From the NCBI GenBank assembly GCA_964589775.1, contig CAZPUN010000036.1, positions 1 through 25,052 on the forward strand: a stretch of DNA of 25,052 nucleotides, read 5' to 3'. Made by a program: the position numbers and the translations under genes. The notes below the pieces were generated by a model that saw nothing but the letters and a program-made list of their open reading frames with translations, ran no database searches and was not told where the DNA came from. This DNA comes from an uncultured archaeon (GTDB taxonomy: Archaea > Asgardarchaeota > Thorarchaeia > Thorarchaeales > CAZPUN01). This document shows positions 9,492 to 21,875 of the stretch, in pieces; positions within the stretch are counted from its first letter, which is position 1; the number at the start of each line of letters is the position of its first letter.

Positions 9492-12107
9492 ATGCATAAA
9501 ATGCTTGTTATAAAGAATAATACAGATGGTACATTGGAACGAATATATATTTTTGATCTATTAGCGCATTTAGGTAGAGCTGGAACTGTCATACGTCCCC
9601 AATTCTATTATCCGCTGAATTTATTTGACTTCTATAATGAAATTGAAACACATTTATTTGAAATAGGTGATAAATTTTCTGATGTATTCAAGTATGTTCC
9701 TCAAAAATTTAGAGCATTGTCAATCCCTCCAATTATAAGCGATTTCTTCAGATGGAGTCTTTCCTTTAGTGAGCGTGGCTGGTTGGTTGACCAATCTTTG
9801 ATAATTGGCTTAACTAAAGGTTTAGAAATTGATTCCCGATATATTCCTGCCAATATTCAAAATGTAAAAGAATGGGCTACAAAGCTCCCCCATGGTCCTC
9901 GTTTCTATCTATTACAGGATTTGGAATTAGATAAATCAAAAGGGGCTTCATGGGGTTTAAAAATTTCAGGAGATAAGTTTCTCGATATTTTAGGAAGCGA
10001 ACTCGGAAAAATTGTATTGAAATATATAGATTCTGATCTTCCTATTTTCATTGAAATCAATTCATTAAAGGCAATTAAGGACTTTTCACGATTTATTTCT
10101 CATTTTACTCCCAAAGATGATTTCAAATCTCGTATAATTCTCTATTTTTCAAATGACGATTTTGCTCAGAAACTCTTACCAAATATAATTGATCACAAAT
10201 GGATTGGTGTTTCGACTGCAGGTTTATCAGTTGAAACAATTCTGCAAATTGTAGAATTCTTTAAAGAAAATAATCGAGATTGGTCTTCTCGCATTTTGTT
10301 TGGCACTGGATATCCATTCAATACATCAAAGCAGATATCAGAGGCAATTAGCTACTTTTTGAGTAAAGATTTTCCTGGAACTCTAAGTGATGTACGAAAA
10401 ATTCTTGGTGCTAATGCGTTATCTATGCTTCCTGCAATATATCCATTTCAAAACTCCGTCGGTAAAGAAGTGATTTTTGAGATAACACCGATTGTTTATC
10501 CAGTTATGCGTTCTGAGCTCTTAAAAGTTGCACAAAATATTGATTCGAACAATTTAGGAAAAATTGTCTCGATTGATTTTATTCTGTCTCCCAATAATAA
10601 TCGCGTTATGCACGATTCATGGATTATTACTTTGCGATTGTCGCGTCATTCGCATATTTCATTTGTTTCGGTTCCATATCGTTCTAAGCAATATATCTTC
10701 ACGACATATTACAATGATATAAAATCAATTGGAAGGAACTTGAAAAAAATTCGTGAATATTTGTCAGAAAAACTAAAAGAGCAATCCGTAATTTCTATTG
10801 AACTTCCTTCTAATATATTTCAATTTTCTAAAGCATTAATCGAATCTATTGGCGTTTCAAAGCACAAAGAGGTTATACGCTCCAATTTCGTATTAATGCG
10901 TGATGATATTAATGAAAAAGTATTACAAATTTCACAAGAAATCGGAACAAAAATTGGTATTGAAAATAATGATATTGGAATTATTGTAAATCCTCAAAAG
11001 GAGGTTTGGCATGCTCTAAAAACACAATATCATACGATAAAAACCGAAAGTGTTGTAAAAGTAGCCTCTGATGCGCTTGATATTTTTAGAATGAACGAAT
11101 ATGATAGAGTTGATTTATTCAAATATGAGGGTACTATTCGAACTGCTCACGGATTATTAATTGCGTATCTGCCCCATGATACTCTATTGCCGACTGATCT
11201 TGAAGATCATATCTTATTACATGAAGAAGAAATTATCTCGCAATTCAAAGATCTCTACATTGGAAACAACATGGGATTTAATTTGAATATATCCGGTGTT
11301 CGATTAAATCTTGAAATTATGCGGGTGACGCCTCCATTAGAAAATGGTGAAATCGCGGTTTTTGAATTTGAAGATTTCAAAAAGGTCATGTTTAAACCCA
11401 TTCAATATTTCCGAGATATAAACCTGATATTTGTTGTAGAAGATTCACAGGAAGCATGGACACATAAGATTCAATGTTCAAATCTATTATTCATAAAGTC
11501 GTTAGTTCGAGATAAATCCATTCTAACTGAACTGGAAAAATTAAAGAAATTTGACGATGAACTTCCTGTATTTCATGCATCTACACTTGCATCTATAATG
11601 ACAATGATGGATCTTTCCCAGATGGATACACAAATCAAATTAGCGTATACAAATGCTACAGATACATTTGATACGTTCACTGTCAGCTATGGCGATACAA
11701 GTGTTCAATATATCGATTTATCTGATACAGCTGCTACTGGTATTATAAAATCCTTAATATCTGATATCTTTTATAGTATGCAACATGAATCTGATGTGCA
11801 TGTTGATCACATGCATCTTGTAGACAATCTTTCATCTGTCATTAAAACTATGCCCCGTAATAATGAAACAATTGTGGTTTTATTTATGGCATCCATTCCT
11901 GAGGACATTTCCTCTTTTATGGAACAAATTAACAGTCTTTTATCAGAGAAAATGAAATTACTAATTGTTGATTTGACTGAAGGTAAGCTGCCTGAGATAA
12001 TTCCCGAGCATAAAGGGATCCAATGGAGACCACATATTTTCAATTTCAGAACATTTAGAAATAAATTGATTGAGATATTAACGGCAAAAGGACATAACTC
12101 ATTATGA
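9492..12107 (+). CDS. 871-aa fusion: inactive amidohydrolase + Cdc48-N-like + degenerate vWA
   Basis: Collinear similarity to 7242-8759 (e.g. WSSRILFGTGYPF vs WSEKFLWGTDYTF; FLSKDFPGTLSDVRKILGAN vs MLSEDFEGTLEDVQRILAGN), followed by similarity to 5860-7188 (e.g. INLIFVVEDSQEA vs FNAILMLDISGSM). Confidence 0.75.
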   Translation: MHKMLVIKNNTDGTLERIYIFDLLAHLGRAGTVIRPQFYYPLNLFDFYNEIETHLFEIGDKFSDVFKYVPQKFRALSIPPIISDFFRWSLSFSERGWLVDQSLIIGLTKGLEIDSRYIPANIQNVKEWATKLPHGPRFYLLQDLELDKSKGASWGLKISGDKFLDILGSELGKIVLKYIDSDLPIFIEINSLKAIKDFSRFISHFTPKDDFKSRIILYFSNDDFAQKLLPNIIDHKWIGVSTAGLSVETILQIVEFFKENNRDWSSRILFGTGYPFNTSKQISEAISYFLSKDFPGTLSDVRKILGANALSMLPAIYPFQNSVGKEVIFEITPIVYPVMRSELLKVAQNIDSNNLGKIVSIDFILSPNNNRVMHDSWIITLRLSRHSHISFVSVPYRSKQYIFTTYYNDIKSIGRNLKKIREYLSEKLKEQSVISIELPSNIFQFSKALIESIGVSKHKEVIRSNFVLMRDDINEKVLQISQEIGTKIGIENNDIGIIVNPQKEVWHALKTQYHTIKTESVVKVASDALDIFRMNEYDRVDLFKYEGTIRTAHGLLIAYLPHDTLLPTDLEDHILLHEEEIISQFKDLYIGNNMGFNLNISGVRLNLEIMRVTPPLENGEIAVFEFEDFKKVMFKPIQYFRDINLIFVVEDSQEAWTHKIQCSNLLFIKSLVRDKSILTELEKLKKFDDELPVFHASTLASIMTMMDLSQMDTQIKLAYTNATDTFDTFTVSYGDTSVQYIDLSDTAATGIIKSLISDIFYSMQHESDVHVDHMHLVDNLSSVIKTMPRNNETIVVLFMASIPEDISSFMEQINSLLSEKMKLLIVDLTEGKLPEIIPEHKGIQWRPHIFNFRTFRNKLIEILTAKGHNSL

Positions 12108-12419
12108 ATTTGTATTGATTAAACTTTTTGATAATTTTCTTAGCCTTTTTTTTCTAATTAATTCATTTAATGTATCTTGCAATTCAATGACTTTCTTTTC
12201 TAGTACACGCATATATGTTTCGATTTTTCGTAATTCGGTTGTATTTGGCTTGTGTTCGTACATTTGTCTAAGCTCTTCAAAACTTGTTTCTACATGTCTA
12301 AGAAAAGCATCTGTTTTTTCTATACTTCTTTTTAGTTTCATCAAATCTTGCCATTGTTCCTGAATTATCAATGCACGGCGTTTTAAATCCATTACTTCAT
12401 TTTGGAGTTCCGATGCCAT
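12102..12419 (-). CDS. small coiled-coil / helical hairpin protein
   Basis: 105 aa with heptad periodicity. Starts 2 bp after the upstream stop; its 3' end overlaps the convergent 871-aa gene by 6 bp. Confidence 0.7.
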   Translation of the reverse strand: MASELQNEVMDLKRRALIIQEQWQDLMKLKRSIEKTDAFLRHVETSFEELRQMYEHKPNTTELRKIETYMRVLEKKVIELQDTLNELIRKKRLRKLSKSLINTNS

Positions 12420-12421
12420 AA

Positions 12422-13813
12422 TTATTCATCTCGTAATAGCTCTTCAATTCTGCTAGCGATTATTTCAAGGTGTTCAGATAACTTTTCATTCTTTTCGATA
12501 ATATCTTGAATGATTTTCTCGGTGTTTGCATCTTTTGAATCTGGTGATTTTTTAGAAATCTCTTTCTTTAATTCATAAAATTCATTTTCCAGCTTTGTAA
12601 TTCTCATTGTAATTGATTTTAAATCCGTTAGGCTTTTCTTAATCTCTTTGCTGAAATCTATTGGCATGATCTTGTCGAGTATTGTTTTAATTTGTGTTAT
12701 TTCATTCTGAAGGTATTTTATATCCGGACCATATTCTATATGTTCTATTTTCTCCGAATGTTCTGAATGTAATTTATCTGCTGGAGTAAATGATGAGGGT
12801 AATTCATGAGCTTTTTTCTCATAGGGTGCTTCTATTGGTTTTGTAGATTTTATTGGGTGTTTTTGAATTTCTGCTTTATCTATTGTCGTTTTTTGCGTTT
12901 CAATATTTTTTTCATGTTTTTCTGGTTTTAGTAATATATCTTCCGAAATATCAATGTCAAACGTATCAGTACTATCTTTTGGTTTTTTGGATATATATTC
13001 TGATTTTTCAATTTCTATTGGTTTTTTAGGGAGATGCCACACATCTTCCATGGCATGGGCAAAATATCGAGTCGAAATATCTTTCAGCGATAGAGTGGTT
13101 TTAATGCATAATGTGGTATTATTTTTGAAGTTTGTAATTGAGTTGTACGACGAACTAAGAAATTTGATATGTGAAATCAAAAATTCAAGACTACCTGCAA
13201 CTTGTGAAATAGTCCGCATCAATGGATAAATTACTCTGAATATATTATTTAAAAATGTCATACAGAATATGTTTTTTGGAACTACAATTGAGCGGATTAT
13301 ATTCTTATTATCTGGCCATCTACTAAAGTTTCGTTCTGATGGATTTGTATATGTAATTGCATTAATAATATATCCTGATTGAGCATCTTCTTCTAAGTTG
13401 CTATAAATCTCTCCTATAGCATCAGAAAATATTTGCATCTGTTGAGCTCTATCAAGTTTAATTGTTATACCCATTTTCAAAACGTATTGGTCATCATTTC
13501 TCTTTAGTTCTGATATAACAAATCGATTTTTATAACCAAAGATCAAAACGCCTGTTTCAAAATTTAAAATTTCATCAGAATTGAAAAGTGCATCTATAAT
13601 TTTTCGGGGCAATACGTATAATACATAATTTTGAATATTATCTATGGGGGGAATTTGCTTGAGAGTTCCGAGATTTATGTAATACTTTTTATTGGGCCAG
13701 TCGTCTATTATATGCGCATCGAGCGGAGCTGAAATTATAGTCCACTCTTTTAATAATTCATGTTCTATCATTTGTTGGAAGTTACCTAACATCATTATGG
13801 TTTCCACTCTCAA
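12422..13813 (-). CDS. hypothetical protein: globular N-domain, charged linker, C-terminal coiled coil
   Basis: 463-aa ORF with a K/E/P/H-rich linker at about aa 265-360 and heptads after it. The true start may be ATG at 13798/13795. Confidence 0.7.
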   Translation of the reverse strand: MRVETIMMLGNFQQMIEHELLKEWTIISAPLDAHIIDDWPNKKYYINLGTLKQIPPIDNIQNYVLYVLPRKIIDALFNSDEILNFETGVLIFGYKNRFVISELKRNDDQYVLKMGITIKLDRAQQMQIFSDAIGEIYSNLEEDAQSGYIINAITYTNPSERNFSRWPDNKNIIRSIVVPKNIFCMTFLNNIFRVIYPLMRTISQVAGSLEFLISHIKFLSSSYNSITNFKNNTTLCIKTTLSLKDISTRYFAHAMEDVWHLPKKPIEIEKSEYISKKPKDSTDTFDIDISEDILLKPEKHEKNIETQKTTIDKAEIQKHPIKSTKPIEAPYEKKAHELPSSFTPADKLHSEHSEKIEHIEYGPDIKYLQNEITQIKTILDKIMPIDFSKEIKKSLTDLKSITMRITKLENEFYELKKEISKKSPDSKDANTEKIIQDIIEKNEKLSEHLEIIASRIEELLRDE

Positions 13814-16676: not shown

Positions 16677-16719
16677 TTGCAATCACCGAATGTTTTATGC
16701 CATTATTATTTTACGACTA

Positions 16720-16740
16720 GCGCCAAATATATACATTTCT
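16720..16740 (-). promoter_or_regulatory. putative promoter of the E2F-like gene: BRE-like purines, TATATA, and an adjacent E2F consensus site TTTGGCGC
   Basis: The minus strand reads AGAAATG-TATATA(16733-16728)-TTTGGCGC(16727-16720), about 45-55 nt upstream of the ATG. Confidence 0.55.
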
Positions 16741-16751
16741 ATTTTCTTTAC

Positions 16752-16765
16752 TTAAATGCATTTAA
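16752..16765. promoter_or_regulatory. 14-bp perfect palindrome, possible operator
   Basis: TTAAATGCATTTAA in the divergent E2F-like/cmr1 intergenic region. Confidence 0.3.
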
Positions 16766-16831
16766 TATTATCGGAATCGACCTATTTTAGGGCGTTCTTC
16801 TAGTATTATATAACATAAATCTTAATTAATT

Positions 16832-16843
16832 CTTCCATGGAAG
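16832..16843. promoter_or_regulatory. 12-bp perfect palindrome, possible operator
   Basis: CTTCCATGGAAG in the same intergenic region. Confidence 0.3.
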
Positions 16844-17037
16844 GAACGGATTTTAATCAATCAAACGCCTAAAATTAAGAAATTAATTGCGACCTTTTTT
16901 GATTATATTGTTTATTTATATATTTTCACGATAAAATATAAAAATAAGAATATACTATAATTTACTAAGAATAGGGGGAGTTGGCTAGTGTGGTTCCAAA
17001 AGCATTTACTCCCTAAACAAATATTCGAGGGCTATAC

Positions 17038-18015
17038 ATGGAAATAACTGTAAATTGTAAAATAATAACTCCAATGTTCCTTGGCGATGCGGATGGTAAA
17101 ACCGCAGTATTAAGACCTCCTTCAATTAAGGCTGCATTACGTTTTTGGTGGCGTGCTCTACACGGAGATCTTTCATTGGCAGAATTAAAAAGTCGCGAAG
17201 GTGAAATATTTGGGTCTTCAAGTGGGAATGCTACGAAAAGCAGAGTTTCTATAAATGTAACCCCCAAGTTATTATCCACATCCCAGAAAGAATTAATTGG
17301 TTCTAAAAAATTAGTCATAACATCGCGTCATACTTTTCAAATAAATCTTATTGAATACTTGAGCTATGGAACCTACAATTTTAAGAATCATGGTATCTAT
17401 CGATATAATCGTCAATATATTCTTCCAGATCAAAAATTCACGATAAATCTTGTATTTCAAGATACGCAATATTCTAAAGACGTTATTAAAGCACTTTCAG
17501 TTCTTTCTAAATTTGGAGGATTAGGCTCAAAATCCAGAAATGGATTTGGCTCATTCAAAATTTTGGAAACAAGTTCTAATTTTTCAGACATTAAAATAGA
17601 CCGTCAGATGTTTTCACCAAATATTCCAAAATATTCTGCTTTTTCCTCTGAAATGAAACTTTGGAGAACAGATAAAACTAAGAGTTGGATTGGAGCTTTG
17701 AGTAAGCTTGCTGCCGCTTATCATTATGCTCGCAATAATATAGAATCTAAGCATAATTACTCATTAAGACAATATATTGGAGCTCCTATAATTATTCGAA
17801 AGATGGGGCAGGTCTCAAAATTATCACGGCATGCAAAACCGTACTTTATGTCAGTGCATTATGAAGATGGATATTATTATGGGCAAATATTATACTTGCC
17901 TTCTAAATATGCAATTGGTCTAGATGATGTTAATAATAATGATGATCGAATGTTTCTTAACGCATGTGATAAACTTAATAAACTTTTATCAGAAGAATTA
18001 GATGAGATTTGGTGA
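17038..18015 (+). CDS. cmr1: type III-B CRISPR RAMP protein Cmr1
   Basis: ITPMFLG, LRPPSIKAALRFWWRA, EGEIFGS, G-rich loop FGGLGSKSRNGFGS. Confidence 0.92.
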   Translation: MEITVNCKIITPMFLGDADGKTAVLRPPSIKAALRFWWRALHGDLSLAELKSREGEIFGSSSGNATKSRVSINVTPKLLSTSQKELIGSKKLVITSRHTFQINLIEYLSYGTYNFKNHGIYRYNRQYILPDQKFTINLVFQDTQYSKDVIKALSVLSKFGGLGSKSRNGFGSFKILETSSNFSDIKIDRQMFSPNIPKYSAFSSEMKLWRTDKTKSWIGALSKLAAAYHYARNNIESKHNYSLRQYIGAPIIIRKMGQVSKLSRHAKPYFMSVHYEDGYYYGQILYLPSKYAIGLDDVNNNDDRMFLNACDKLNKLLSEELDEIW

Positions 18016-18022
18016 GGGCAAA

Positions 18023-19351
18023 ATGGTTGAAGAAAAATCAAATGTATTGATCTCTTTCTTAGGAACTACAAATTATATTCCCGTAAATTATTATTTATAT
18101 AATAAGAAAAATAAAGTTGATAATACACGTTTTGTTCAAGAAGCGATTTCTAAGATTCTTTGTAAGGACTGGACAGATTCCGATAGAATTGTTGTATTTT
18201 TGACAGATGATGCTAAGAAAAAAAATTGGGAAAATCGTGAAGATCATGAAAAACAAAAAATTATTGGTCTTTATGAAAAATTGCAGAATCTGAAATTAAA
18301 GCCTCAAATTGTACCTATTTCGATTCCATCGGGAAAAAACAAAGATGAGATTTGGAAAATTTTTGATATTGTTTTCAAAACATTAAATGAGAATGATCAT
18401 GTACATTTTGACATTACTCATGCATTTCGTATGATTCCAATGCTTGTTTTCATTATTCTAAATTATGCAAAAACTATCAAGAATATTTCAATAGACGGTA
18501 TCTATTATGGTGCTATGGAATCCTTAGGAACAATCTCAGATATTAGAGCAATGGATATCTCTCAGCGAGATGTACCGATTTTTGATGTAACCGAATTTGT
18601 TAGAGTTTTCGAATGGACTATTGCAGTAAACAACTTTCAGATCTATGGTGATGCAAAAGAGATTTATAGTCTTACCATGGATATTGCAAAAAATTCCCGA
18701 AATAATCCCAACGTGAATATAGATGTAATTCGTAATTTTGCAAACAAGTTGAAATACTTTACAGATGCAATCAGAAGAAGTCTAGGTCCAGTAATCATAG
18801 AATTTGAGTATGAAACTCTTAAACACCTAATTAAAAAGATAAAGAATAACAATATTTATGCGTTAAATCCACTATTAGATCGAATTTCAAATAAGATTAA
18901 TGATTTCAAAAGTAATGATGTAGAAAATGGTTATCGCGCAGTAAAATGGTGTATTGAGCACAATCTGATTCAACAAGGATATACAATTCTCAGAGAAACA
19001 ATCATCAGTGAAATTCTTTTAAAAGCTTTGGCCAAATCATATTTTAAAAATGAAAAAATATTTAAAAATGAAAAAATACGAGAAGGAATTGCAGAACGAC
19101 TTTCAGTTATAGCCTTAAAAAATAGGCATGACAAGAAAGAGAATATGGATGGAATATTACCCGACGATATACGGCAAAAAGTAGATGCAGAAATTAATGA
19201 ATGTATAGCCCAAATTTTCTACAATTTAGGGAATTATCGGAATTATATAAATCATGCCGGTTTTAAACATAACCACATTAAAGCTAATGAATTATCTAAA
19301 CAATTATCAAATTTTATCAAACAATTGGAGGAGTGTCGAAAAAATGAATGA
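18023..19351 (+). CDS. csx1: CRISPR-associated CARF-HEPN ribonuclease, Csx1 (TM1812-like)
   Basis: LISFLG, FDITHAFR, IYYGA, PIFDVT, HEPN R-X4-H motif RNYINHAG. GGTGA RBS overlapping the cmr1 stop favours ATG 18023. Confidence 0.9.
   Translation: MVEEKSNVLISFLGTTNYIPVNYYLYNKKNKVDNTRFVQEAISKILCKDWTDSDRIVVFLTDDAKKKNWENREDHEKQKIIGLYEKLQNLKLKPQIVPISIPSGKNKDEIWKIFDIVFKTLNENDHVHFDITHAFRMIPMLVFIILNYAKTIKNISIDGIYYGAMESLGTISDIRAMDISQRDVPIFDVTEFVRVFEWTIAVNNFQIYGDAKEIYSLTMDIAKNSRNNPNVNIDVIRNFANKLKYFTDAIRRSLGPVIIEFEYETLKHLIKKIKNNNIYALNPLLDRISNKINDFKSNDVENGYRAVKWCIEHNLIQQGYTILRETIISEILLKALAKSYFKNEKIFKNEKIREGIAERLSVIALKNRHDKKENMDGILPDDIRQKVDAEINECIAQIFYNLGNYRNYINHAGFKHNHIKANELSKQLSNFIKQLEECRKNE
19043..19078 (+). 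repeat. perfect 18-bp in-frame tandem duplication in csx1
   Basis: TTTAAAAATGAAAAAATA x2, encoding FKNEKI-FKNEKI. Confidence 0.9.
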
Positions 19352-20249
19352 AAGAAATAGGCTCTTATTTTATGTTGTTGAAAGCTCTTTGCATGCAGGA
19401 TTAGGAAACAGCTTAGGTCGAGTAGACATGATTATTCAACGGGAACGATATACGCGATTTCCAATTATTGAGGCATCTAGTCTTAAAGGTGTTTTCCGTA
19501 GTGCGTTCGACAAGCGTATGTCCAAAGACGATCCAGAGAACAACGTAGTTTCCATACTGTTTGGTCCAGAAAAAGGAGATGAATATTCGGGCTCTCTAAT
19601 AATGTCAAATGCAAATATCTTATTGTTTCCTATTAAATCTATGAAAAATGTGTATGCATTAGCAACATGTCCTTCGGCTTTGCTACGATTTAATGAGTAT
19701 TTGCAAAAAGTCGGTAAAAAACCCCTTAAAATTCCAAAGCCGAATACAGTACCTGAAAATACTAATTTGATTATTTTAGAAAACAAGATTGTTCTAGAAG
19801 AATTTACTTTCGAGATTTCGGAATCCGATGCGTGCTCAACACTTGCCGAGTTTCTTGCAGAATATATAATTGGAGACGATGAGGATTACGCATATTTGAA
19901 AGAAAAAATAGAAAATGACCTTGTCATACTTTCAGATGACGATTTTTCATATTTTGTTCAATATTCTACAGAACTTCATACACGCACAAAAATAGACCCT
20001 GCAACGGGAACTGTACAGCATACCGGATTATTTACGGAAGAATATCTCCCTGCAGATACTGTTTTGTATTCGCTCGTGTCGATATCCAAGATTTACGCAG
20101 ATGGTAAACACATATTTAGTGATACTGATAAAGATGCAGAATCTAAAAAGGCATTGAACTACTTTATCGAGCATCTGCCTAAAGCAATACAAATTGGGAA
20201 AAATGGAAGTATTGGAAAGGGCATTGTAAAAATTTTTGGAGGGAATTAA
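19344..20249 (+). CDS. cmr4: type III-B CRISPR RAMP protein Cmr4 (Cas7 backbone nuclease)
   Basis: LHAGLG....VD..IQRE, FP.IEASSLKG, LFG, ILLFPIKS, RTKIDPATGTV...LFTEEYLP, QIG...IGKG. GGAGGAG RBS; ATG 19344 overlaps the csx1 stop. Confidence 0.93.
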   Translation: MNERNRLLFYVVESSLHAGLGNSLGRVDMIIQRERYTRFPIIEASSLKGVFRSAFDKRMSKDDPENNVVSILFGPEKGDEYSGSLIMSNANILLFPIKSMKNVYALATCPSALLRFNEYLQKVGKKPLKIPKPNTVPENTNLIILENKIVLEEFTFEISESDACSTLAEFLAEYIIGDDEDYAYLKEKIENDLVILSDDDFSYFVQYSTELHTRTKIDPATGTVQHTGLFTEEYLPADTVLYSLVSISKIYADGKHIFSDTDKDAESKKALNYFIEHLPKAIQIGKNGSIGKGIVKIFGGN

Positions 20250-20624
20250 TTGGTATCTAAGAATATGGAACTTACTATTGCAAAAATTGCATATGATTTT
20301 GCAGAGGAAGGTGCTGCAATATCAAAAAAGAAAGAGTACAAGTCCTATGTCAAAAAAATTCCAAGTTTAATTTACAAAAATGGCTTGTCTGCTACACTTA
20401 AGTTTATTGATATAAAACGTAATAATCAATCTAATAATGATGCATATAATATTTTGTTCAACCAAATTAAAAAATTCTTAGTAGATATGGGTCATTCTCT
20501 TAATGATCCTTTTACTTATGTTTCTTCGTGTGATTCTAATAAATATCGTAAAGTGACAATTGAAATTTTATCGTTATTCGATTGGCTAAAGCGTTTTGCA
20601 GACGGTTTAATTAAGGAGGATTAA
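20250..20624 (+). CDS. cmr5: type III-B small subunit Cmr5
   Basis: YKSYVKKIPSLIYKNGL..TL.F and WLKRFA motifs; position between cmr4 and cmr6. Confidence 0.92.
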   Translation: MVSKNMELTIAKIAYDFAEEGAAISKKKEYKSYVKKIPSLIYKNGLSATLKFIDIKRNNQSNNDAYNILFNQIKKFLVDMGHSLNDPFTYVSSCDSNKYRKVTIEILSLFDWLKRFADGLIKED

Positions 20625-20629
20625 TAAAT

Positions 20630-21532
20630 ATGGCGCGGTATATTCGTCCAATTAATAGACAAAAACGTGACTATAATAGGTCATATTCTCATAGAGAGTC
20701 CAGAGAGAATTGTGTCTATCTAGTACCCACGGATACAAGTAAACTAATACCAGAAACTATTGACAATTTTAACTTGAAGTTAAACAAAGCCATAAAACTG
20801 TGTAACGATAGTTTTAGGTTAGAAATAAACGATCATACTATTAATACTAAAATAATTAAAAGCGTTGCAGAGCGGCACCGTAATACTATAGAAAATCTCG
20901 GCATCTTGGTTGAGAGTAAAACTTTTGCTCCGGAATGGCGTATGATAATCGGGTTAGGTGACGCATCAGTTTACGAGACTTCTATGCATTTACATCATGT
21001 ATATGGTTTTCCATATATTCCTGGCAGTGGAATAAAAGGTGCATTACGAAATTATTTTATACTACGATATTTTGCCAGTGAGAACGGAACTGTTAATTTA
21101 GAAAATGCTGAAAGTAGAGCTATTAAAGATCGTGGATTCTGTGACATATTTGGGTCTCCTGAAGATGGCTATTACAAAAAAGCAGTTAAAGGTCGTATTA
21201 TCTTTTTTGATGCATATCCGCAGGGTAACGTTATTATTAAACGAGACATTATGAATCCGCATTACGCACCATATTATTCTGATGATGAAAATAAAACACC
21301 TCCCGGTGATTATTTCAATCCGGTTCCAATATTTTTCCTAGTTGTTGAAGAAACAAAATTTGAATTTATTTTTGGGATTAACCCCGAAGATAATCAAACA
21401 ATCCCTGAAGGAAAATTCAAAGGTAAAAAACCACTTGATGTTGTAATGGAAAATCTTGAAGATGCGTTCGAGAATTTCGGTATTGGTGCAAAAACTGCAG
21501 TTGGATATGGTCACATGGTGGTTAGTAAATAA
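20630..21532 (+). CDS. cmr6: type III-B CRISPR RAMP protein Cmr6
   Basis: RMIIGLG, LHHVYGFPYIPGSGIKG, IFFDAYP, DIMNPHY, PVPIFFL, GIGAKTAVGYG. Confidence 0.93.
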   Translation: MARYIRPINRQKRDYNRSYSHRESRENCVYLVPTDTSKLIPETIDNFNLKLNKAIKLCNDSFRLEINDHTINTKIIKSVAERHRNTIENLGILVESKTFAPEWRMIIGLGDASVYETSMHLHHVYGFPYIPGSGIKGALRNYFILRYFASENGTVNLENAESRAIKDRGFCDIFGSPEDGYYKKAVKGRIIFFDAYPQGNVIIKRDIMNPHYAPYYSDDENKTPPGDYFNPVPIFFLVVEETKFEFIFGINPEDNQTIPEGKFKGKKPLDVVMENLEDAFENFGIGAKTAVGYGHMVVSK

Positions 21533-21557: not shown

Positions 21558-21610
21558 TATTATTTCGCTGTTGAGTATCTTGTGCAATTAGGGATTTTTC
21601 AATATTACAA

Positions 21611-21875
21611 ACACTCTGCGAGAAAGCATTGCTTTAGAAAGCGGTGATGAATCGCATAAGAGTTCATAACAGTGTATACATATAATAAATCAATTAGTTT
21701 GAGGATTTAGAATAGGGTGCGACTTGAATACATGTGTTGCATCCAAAGATATCCTCAAAAAAGATGGGGGTGCGTTGCTCTCTTATCGAGACACGGCGAG
21801 TATATGCTTGAAATAGCTACTGCAGGGTAGTTTATACGTAAAACCCTTGCATCTCAATGCGGGAAGTATACCTGA
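21611..21875 (+). ncRNA. candidate structured non-coding RNA, family unassigned
   Basis: About 40% GC by hand count versus about 14% in the next 80 nt. Four foldable hairpins, three with G-U pairs on the + strand; no ORF of 60 aa or more spans it. Confidence 0.4.

Follow-up and report, generated by a model that had tools for sequence, protein, structure and literature searches.

The stretch of DNA analyzed here (the window) is the complete 25,052-bp contig C36 (CAZPUN010000036.1) of G000, the draft genome of an uncultured Thorarchaeales archaeon (2.16 Mb in 64 contigs, with an estimated completeness of 96.75% and contamination of 3.9%). At positions 17038-21532 it contains a type III-B CRISPR (cmr) operon without a gene for Cas10, formed by five intact, closely packed + strand genes: cmr1, a csx1-type gene, cmr4, cmr5, and cmr6 (Table 1). 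All five products passed the curated NCBIfam cut-offs in a profile search. The junctions were read directly in the sequence. The cmr1 stop codon (TGA) occupies 18013-18015, and it is overlapped by the GGTGAGG motif preceding the ATG at 18023, the likely start of csx1; the mechanically called open reading frame (ORF) starts at an upstream ATG (18002), the product being 442 aa long from the former and 449 aa from the latter. The ATG of cmr4 (19344) lies within ATGAATGA and overlaps the end of csx1, stop codon included, by 8 nt, cmr5 starts at the very next base after the cmr4 stop codon, and cmr6 starts 5 nt after cmr5. The family models and these junctions confirmed a preliminary description of the locus as an intact, tightly coupled operon, in which the ribosome-binding site of csx1 overlaps the cmr1 stop codon and the cmr4 ATG overlaps that of csx1.

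The genes on both flanks are non-cas genes, as had been described: upstream lie genes coding for VWA, HD, cyclophilin-like, and E2F/DP winged-helix proteins, and downstream genes for a 447-aa protein and a CitMHS transporter. No match to Cas10/Cmr2 was obtained in the window with hidden Markov models (HMMs) or tblastn, and the module has no large subunit of its own. Neither does it encode Cmr3, the Cas5-type protein that binds the 5′ tag of the CRISPR RNA (crRNA), the only TIGR01888 match in the whole genome being located on another contig (C39:13634-14734). Using eight Cmr2/Cmr3 and four Csx20 queries in tblastn, no remnant of cmr2, cmr3, or csx20 was detected in the window, and the 25-kb contig contains no cas6 gene and no CRISPR array (neither of the two CRISPR repeats of the genome is present in it, and TRF revealed no array).

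Origin of the operon from a standard type III-B locus

Apart from one sister protein described below, the nearest relatives of the window Cmr4 were 46–50% identical to it, and those of Csx1 43–46%. Around the nearest Cmr4 and Csx1 relatives with enough sequence context, we found at least seven sister operons (L020, L021/L046, L031/L032, L034, L118, and L119) with the gene order cmr1-cmr2-cmr3-csx20(MJ1673)-csx1(MJ1674)-cmr4-cmr5-cmr6, often adjoining cas6b. In the five that were compared by coordinates (L020, L021, L031, L034, and L119), csx1 and cmr4 overlap by 8 nt, exactly as in the window. Both Cmr1 and Csx1 of the window are full length against their sister-operon relatives, Cmr1 aligning end to end with the Cmr1 proteins of the full operons L031/L032 and with that of the relative L018 (53% identity with the latter). 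Judged from these comparisons, the window operon is a deletion derivative of a III-B operon, from which cmr2-cmr3-csx20 were cleanly lost, leaving csx1 in its ancestral slot. Since the sister operons have csx1 in that position with cmr2-cmr3-csx20 upstream, csx1 has not replaced cmr2-cmr3; the earlier statement that it sits exactly where these two genes normally are was misleading, its own slot in the sister operons being the one between csx20 and cmr4. Many related III-B operons (L036-L115) show a gap of approximately 1.1–1.4 kb between cmr3 and cmr4 that was matched by neither the csx1 nor the csx20 HMM, and accessory genes of various kinds generally seem to be accommodated at the cmr3/cmr4 junction.

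The frequency of this layout was surveyed in 80 loci from species-representative genomes, taken from the Cmr4 alignment and scored with purpose-built HMMs for Cmr1-6, Csx1, and Csx20. Every surveyed locus with at least about 4 kb upstream of cmr4 contained cmr2 and cmr3, and none of the 80 with adequate flank showed a Cas10-less layout, each apparent absence being a truncation at a contig end. The Cas10-less layout is a rare exception, confined in this survey to one small clade. In an order-level search of 87 genomes, where G000 is the sole member of its own family, no close homologue of the window Cmr4 was found (the best outside G000 was 34% identical).

Cmr4 scored 215.9 bits with TIGR02580 (cut-off 87), and its best PDB match was 9arw chain C (E 4e-74). 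The invariant Cmr4 motifs are kept, including D28, which aligned to D26 of Pyrococcus furiosus Cmr4; the catalytic-position Asp noted in the preliminary description is thus present, and its replacement in the P. furiosus protein (D26A) abolished cleavage (PMC4333402). Cmr5, Cmr6, and Cmr1 all exceeded the cut-offs of their models (TIGR01881, TIGR01898, and TIGR01894, respectively). Residues 28-296 of Cmr6 aligned to residues 84-373 of 9arw chain H, annotated as "CSD domain-containing protein Cmr6," so that the window protein lacks the N-terminal cold-shock domain of its closest solved homologue. A literature search for Cmr6 proteins with a cold-shock domain found nothing.

Table 1. Features of the cmr locus in the window.
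Feature	Position	Strand	Basis
AT-rich intergenic region 5′ of cmr1, presumed operon promoter region (promoter putative)	16683..17037	+	Sequence reading
cmr1, 325 aa, full length	17038..18015	+	TIGR01894, E 1.8e-18; PF03787
csx1-type CARF-HEPN effector gene (MJ1674/TIGR02221 family)	18023..19351	+	TIGR02221, E 4e-26; DxTHG motif model TIGR02549
cmr4, 301 aa, Cas7 backbone/slicer subunit	19344..20249	+	TIGR02580, E 1e-63
cmr5, 124 aa, TTG start, Cas11 small subunit	20250..20624	+	PF09701, E 3e-25; TIGR01881, E 5e-18
cmr6, 300 aa	20630..21532	+	TIGR01898, E 4e-42

Type III machinery elsewhere in the genome and the Csx1 effector

The preliminary description had reported the absence of cas10, cmr3, cas6, remnants, and arrays, and had proposed that the genome be searched for them. 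Their absence held for the contig and not for the genome, since that search located all the genes on contig C39 and arrays at the ends of three others. Contig C39 carries cas6 (C39:183-1034), a III-D-like locus coding for an 882-aa Cas10 with an HD motif, Csx10, and several Csx7/Csm3-type RAMPs, and a complete III-B operon with the order cmr1-cmr2-cmr3-csx20-cmr4-cmr5-cmr6 (C39:11006-17180), which does not contain csx1. The Cas10 genes of G000 are confined to this contig, and both keep the GGDD motif; in the C39 Cmr2, an HD motif was not seen within the first 150 residues. CRISPR arrays were found at the end of C48 and the start of C54, which share one repeat, and at the end of C64, with a second repeat. 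The C48/C54 repeat terminates in ATTGAAAG, the same tag that is bound by the P. furiosus Cmr2-5 subcomplex (PMC4215187). No TIGR00287 (cas1) match was obtained anywhere in the assembly, which breaks at the arrays, and the adaptation module of G000 may be unassembled or absent.

The Cmr proteins of the window share just 34–43% identity with those encoded on C39. Because of this low identity, and since the C39 operon has its own cmr1, cmr4, cmr5, and cmr6, the window set is neither a recent duplicate nor one half of a simple split locus. Completion in trans, one of the options raised beforehand, is accordingly supported insofar as cmr2-cmr3, cas6, and arrays are present at other places in G000, and not in its simple split-locus form. 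None of the window proteins matched the gRAMP models, for which weak partial matches were obtained with C39 proteins alone.

The csx1 gene of the window is the sole TIGR02221 gene found in G000 by whole-genome profile search. Its product scored 92.3 bits with TIGR02221 (cut-off 76.25) and 37.3 bits with TIGR02549 (cut-off 21), and it matched PDB 8y75, the Csx1 portion of the Csx1-Crn2 RNase, over its full length; that RNase is activated by cyclic tetra-adenylate (cA4). The CARF motif FDITHAF aligned with FDITHGF/FDITHAL of homologues. The HEPN R-X4-H motif, the retention of which had also been pointed out in the preliminary description, is RNYINH (R413-H418, numbered from the ATG at 18002) and aligned with RNDIDH/RNDINH of the sister proteins and RNSVAH of 8y75. 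By homology to Csx1-Crn2 (PMC11317161) and from the pairing of its family with Csx20, the window Csx1 is predicted to be a cA4-activated RNase. Csx20 has been experimentally shown to be a cA4 ring nuclease (bioRxiv 10.1101/2024.09.24.614671), and the C39 protein is a homologue of MJ1673 (E 1e-28 to 1e-32). The two genes are divided in G000, the C39 III-B operon containing csx20 without csx1 and the window operon csx1 without csx20. In bacteria, some of the closest Csx1 relatives belong to csx20-csx1 pairs that stand alone, well away from cmr genes, and the pair is therefore an independent mobile signaling cassette. Within csx1, at 19043-19078, 18 bp are perfectly duplicated in tandem, so that the helical segment linking CARF to HEPN contains FKNEKI two times; at this site the sister Csx1 proteins have 5–6 residues fewer, and the duplication is recent and in frame.

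A second Cas10-less locus in a related species

Two NCBI assemblies of a single related species contain the closest homologue of the window Cmr4 (P0124, 54% identity); the corresponding loci, L018 and L019, share 99.97% identity along 14.4 kb. A look for the same gene order in other genomes, as had been suggested, thus identified a second Cas10-less locus: at the syntenic site the relative carries cmr1-cmr4-cmr5-cmr6, with no cas10, cmr3, csx1, or csx20. The flanking genes are the same as in the window, with 89–98% identity between the two for the VWA, E2F/DP winged-helix, 444-aa (447 aa in the window), and CitMHS proteins, 80% for the cyclophilin-like protein, and 65% for the HD protein. Upstream of cmr1, the first ~156 nt of the presumed promoter region are 82% identical to L018, and the remainder is not conserved. 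On another contig, one of the two assemblies of the relative (GCA_053940065.1) also contains the syntenic counterpart of the C39 operon, a complete cmr1-cmr2-cmr3-cmr4-cmr5-cmr6 operon that is devoid of csx20 and is adjoined on its 3′ side, as in C39, by the same SDR gene. This operon (L116:9126-15055) was located by a Cmr2 homologue search and exact look-up, and shows a 67-bp spacer between cmr3 and cmr4 where C39 has csx20. Thus, csx20 and csx1 are either both present (G000) or both absent (the relative), though housed in different operons.

Both Cmr sets were compared between the two genomes. The Cas10-less Cmr proteins are 47–56% identical (44–54% in the comparison made together with the flanking proteins), and those of the complete set 51–62%. 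For the Cas10-less set, the proportion of nonsynonymous differences (pN) was 0.29–0.35 and that of synonymous differences (pS) 0.55–0.77, with pN/pS ratios of 0.37–0.64 and no broken frames; for the complete set, the corresponding values were 0.25–0.31, 0.69–0.73, and 0.35–0.44. The pN/pS of cmr5 (0.64) was the highest among the genes compared, and synonymous sites are saturated between the two genomes, even in the flanks. Since the divergence is similar to that of the complete set, pN is lower than pS, and the frames are intact, the Cas10-less set is maintained and not decaying, and is about as constrained as the complete system. Of the decaying deletion product contemplated in the preliminary description, the deletion is borne out by the sister operons and the decay is not; nor did we find the unique occurrence with dN/dS near 1 also considered there, a second species having the set with pN below pS. 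Replacement of alleles was considered as the cause of the contrast between the Cmr proteins (approximately 50% identity) and their flanks (approximately 90%), and was rejected because the synonymous sites of the flanks are saturated and the complete III-B set is equally divergent. The contrast reflects the ordinary fast evolution of defense genes. The two Cas10-less proteins were recovered as sisters (SH-aLRT 99) in a tree of 121 Cmr4 sequences, consistent with a single ancestral loss and accelerated evolution thereafter.

The comparison of both genomes also revealed other variable regions. On the 5′ side of the syntenic complete III-B operons the cargo differs, consisting in G000 of the III-D-like locus (C39:183-9186, with cas6, HD-Cas10, Csx10, and Csx7-type RAMPs) and in the relative of a gene set that includes a match to Csc2, the type I-D Cas7 (L116:446-8989); this site looks like a swappable CRISPR island. 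In the window, three adjoining ORFs near the Cmr module (9492-13813; 871 aa on the + strand, 105 and 463 aa on the − strand) had no Pfam match and are 41–61% identical to the syntenic genes of the relative, several neighbors being 89–98% identical. This cluster is fast-evolving and may be defense-related. A dispersed repeat of approximately 270 bp lies 3′ of cmr6 (21591-21875), with 10 genome copies of at least 200 bp (68–78% identity) and ~23 partial matches on at least 20 contigs. The relative lacks it at the corresponding position, having a gap of ~100 bp there, and the repeat has the look of a miniature inverted-repeat transposable element, with no Rfam match and a weak consensus fold. An IS605/TnpB-derived origin of this repeat was rejected in view of that weak fold and of zero OrfB_IS605 matches in the genome. 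No Rfam family was found in the window, and scans for sigma-70 promoters and terminators gave results at shuffle level, the bacterial sigma-70 model being unsuited to an archaeon.

Possible function of the module and significance

The explanation that we favor, with about even confidence, is that the window operon is a dependent second backbone set, which would borrow Cmr2/Cmr3, Cas6, and crRNAs in trans, and whose Csx1 would serve as a cA4 effector for the Cas10 proteins of C39. It is probably not a new stand-alone CRISPR type. A clean deletion removed the adjacent genes cmr2 (Cas10), cmr3 (Cas5), and csx20 (cA4 ring nuclease) from an ancestral cmr1-cmr2-cmr3-csx20-csx1-cmr4-cmr5-cmr6 operon, and selection would have kept the remainder as a dependent module of the C39 type III machinery. 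The HEPN ribonuclease Csx1 would be activated by cyclic oligoadenylate (cOA) synthesized by the GGDD-bearing Cas10s of C39, and the C39 Csx20 ring nuclease would switch it off. Cmr1, Cmr4, Cmr5, and Cmr6 would provide another, paralogous set of backbone and cap subunits, assembling on crRNAs that Cas6 has processed from the arrays of the genome, with C39 Cmr2-Cmr3 as the 5′-tag-binding foot, generating an alternative or hybrid Cmr complex. Both trans interactions are inferences. In the reconstituted P. furiosus Cmr complex, Cmr2, Cmr3, Cmr4, and Cmr5 must each be present for binding of the crRNA through its AUUGAAAG tag, and capture of the target RNA requires Cmr1 and Cmr6 (PMC4215187). The window encodes all Cmr parts except the tag-binding foot, and both module-bearing genomes encode a complete foot elsewhere. 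In addition, native mass spectrometry of the Thermus thermophilus Csm complex revealed sub-complexes without Cas10 and otherwise unchanged in stoichiometry (PMC5256923), which indicates that the large subunit can be loosely held.

Several observations weigh against this explanation. At 34–43% identity between the two sets, the fit of C39 Cmr2/Cmr3 with the window Cmr4/Cmr5 is unproven; a complex prediction for C39 Cmr3 with the window Cmr4, each with its own alignment and without controls, gave a score of 0.00, which counts neither for nor against the proposal. The co-occurrence with a complete III-B operon comprises two genomes of one clade. In the relative, the Cmr genes have been kept with neither locus containing csx1 or csx20, so that retention of the backbone cannot be explained by the proposed role of Csx1. 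At the position of P. furiosus Cmr4 D86, where the D86A change lowered activity (PMC4333402), the window Cmr4 has N89, and 19 of 20 aligned Cmr4 proteins have Asp; the second conserved Asp is therefore replaced although the catalytic-position one is present, and of the two Cas10-less proteins the window one alone shows this replacement. Finally, the two Cas10-less Cmr4 proteins share a stem of 1.04, with tips of 0.69 and 0.83 where the median is 0.13, and both have derived residues at about 12 of the 97 columns showing conservation of 90% or more in other Cmr4 proteins. These branch lengths and columns point to changed constraints after the loss, and a new and independent role would account for them no less well.

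Such a role would be that of an autonomous effector lacking Cas10 and Cas5, in which Cmr1, Cmr4, Cmr5, and Cmr6 alone would bind or cut RNA complementary to an RNA guide, as an unfused counterpart of the type III-E Cas7-11 and without cOA signaling of its own. We regard this as unlikely, albeit the most serious of the alternatives. A type III-E backbone with a Cas11 domain works without Cas10 and Cas5 (bioRxiv 10.1101/2022.06.13.496011), both Cas10-less Cmr4 proteins keep the catalytic-position Asp, the long stem and shared derived substitutions suggest a functional shift, and the relative retains the module in the absence of csx1. However, Cmr2 and Cmr3 were indispensable for crRNA loading in the one reconstituted III-B system examined (PMC4215187), family searches gave no candidate for a substitute 5′-tag binder in the operon or its flanks, no array adjoins the locus, and both genomes with the module also carry a complete III-B operon, as dependence predicts. 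A self-sufficient RNA-guided Cmr1/4/5/6 complex long kept beside a canonical III-B system, whether targeting or binding RNA independently or providing an interchangeable backbone that diversifies the effectors of the host, is doubtful to the same degree.

A functionless remnant is less probable still. In that case the Cmr genes would be leftovers of the deletion, kept open by chance or by read-through constraints, and csx1 alone would matter in G000. The locus is demonstrably a deletion derivative, and the D-to-N change at the second conserved acidic residue of Cmr4, the high pN/pS of cmr5, and the loss of csx1 as well in the relative could all be accommodated. Nevertheless, four full-length genes have stayed open in two lineages with pS saturated and clearly above pN, they have diverged about as much as the complete and presumably working III-B genes of the same genome pair, and the invariant Cmr4 motifs, the translational coupling, and the ribosome-binding sites are preserved. 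It is very unlikely that Csx1 is physically coupled to a Cmr1/4/5/6 filament and activated directly by target binding in place of Cas10-cOA signaling, an option also raised in the preliminary description and for which we obtained no support. The gene is indeed translationally coupled on both sides, but this coupling is inherited and not new, since csx1 has the same position and the same 8-nt cmr4 overlap in sister operons that bear Cas10; moreover, the CARF ligand-site and HEPN motifs are conserved as in cA4-dependent relatives, the module of the other species lacks csx1, and close relatives occur in csx20-csx1 pairs away from cmr genes. Least probable of all is an artifact, in which the cmr1/csx1 junction would be misassembled or C36 and C39 would belong to different organisms in the bin. 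G000 is a 64-contig draft with some estimated contamination; against this, in both assemblies of the relative cmr1 adjoins cmr4, without cas10, at the corresponding chromosomal position, GCA_053940065.1 likewise has a complete III-B operon on another contig, neither Cmr1 nor Csx1 is truncated at the junction, where there is a plausible ribosome-binding site, and GC content is uniform across the window.

Among known systems, the closest relatives of all five window proteins belong to 9arw-like III-B operons with a csx20-csx1 insert, which share with it the gene order, the strand, and, in the operons checked, the 8-nt csx1/cmr4 overlap; 9arw is the best solved match for both Cmr4 and Cmr6. The window differs from them by the absence of cmr2, cmr3, csx20, and remnants of these genes, of the Cmr6 cold-shock domain, and of an adjoining cas6 or array, and by a much longer Cmr4 branch. 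Type III-E Cas7-11 (gRAMP) is likewise type III-derived and combines Cas7 and Cas11 parts without Cas10 or Cas5, keeping Cas7-type RNA cleavage (bioRxiv 10.1101/2022.06.13.496011). It is, however, one fused polypeptide originating from III-D-like Cas7s, with its own array and partner proteins, whereas the window has four separate III-B genes (124–325 aa) instead of a single polypeptide and no neighboring array, and its genome also contains a complete III-B operon. With Csx1-Crn2 (PDB 8y75, PMC11317161), the window Csx1 shares a full-length alignment to the Csx1 part, the CARF DxTH motif, and the HEPN R-X4-H motif, and lacks the Crn2 fusion. In contrast to the Csx1/Csx20 pairs of the sister operons, the effector and the ring nuclease of G000 are encoded in separate Cmr operons located on different contigs.

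A Cas10-Cas5 foot is generally regarded as the core of type III complexes. What is unusual here is that a backbone-only set is conserved under selection beside a complete system in two species, an arrangement of which we found no description in the literature searched; a search for Cas10-less type III also returned nothing. Its retention would imply either that paralogous type III complexes share subunits, backbones being exchanged on one Cas10-Cmr3 foot, or that a multi-subunit Cmr backbone can work without Cas10 as in III-E, and either outcome would bear on the origin of reduced effectors such as III-E. In G000, the cOA circuit would be split over two operons, with the cyclase and the ring nuclease in one and the sole Csx1-type effector found in the other, a circuit that annotation pipelines working locus by locus would miss.

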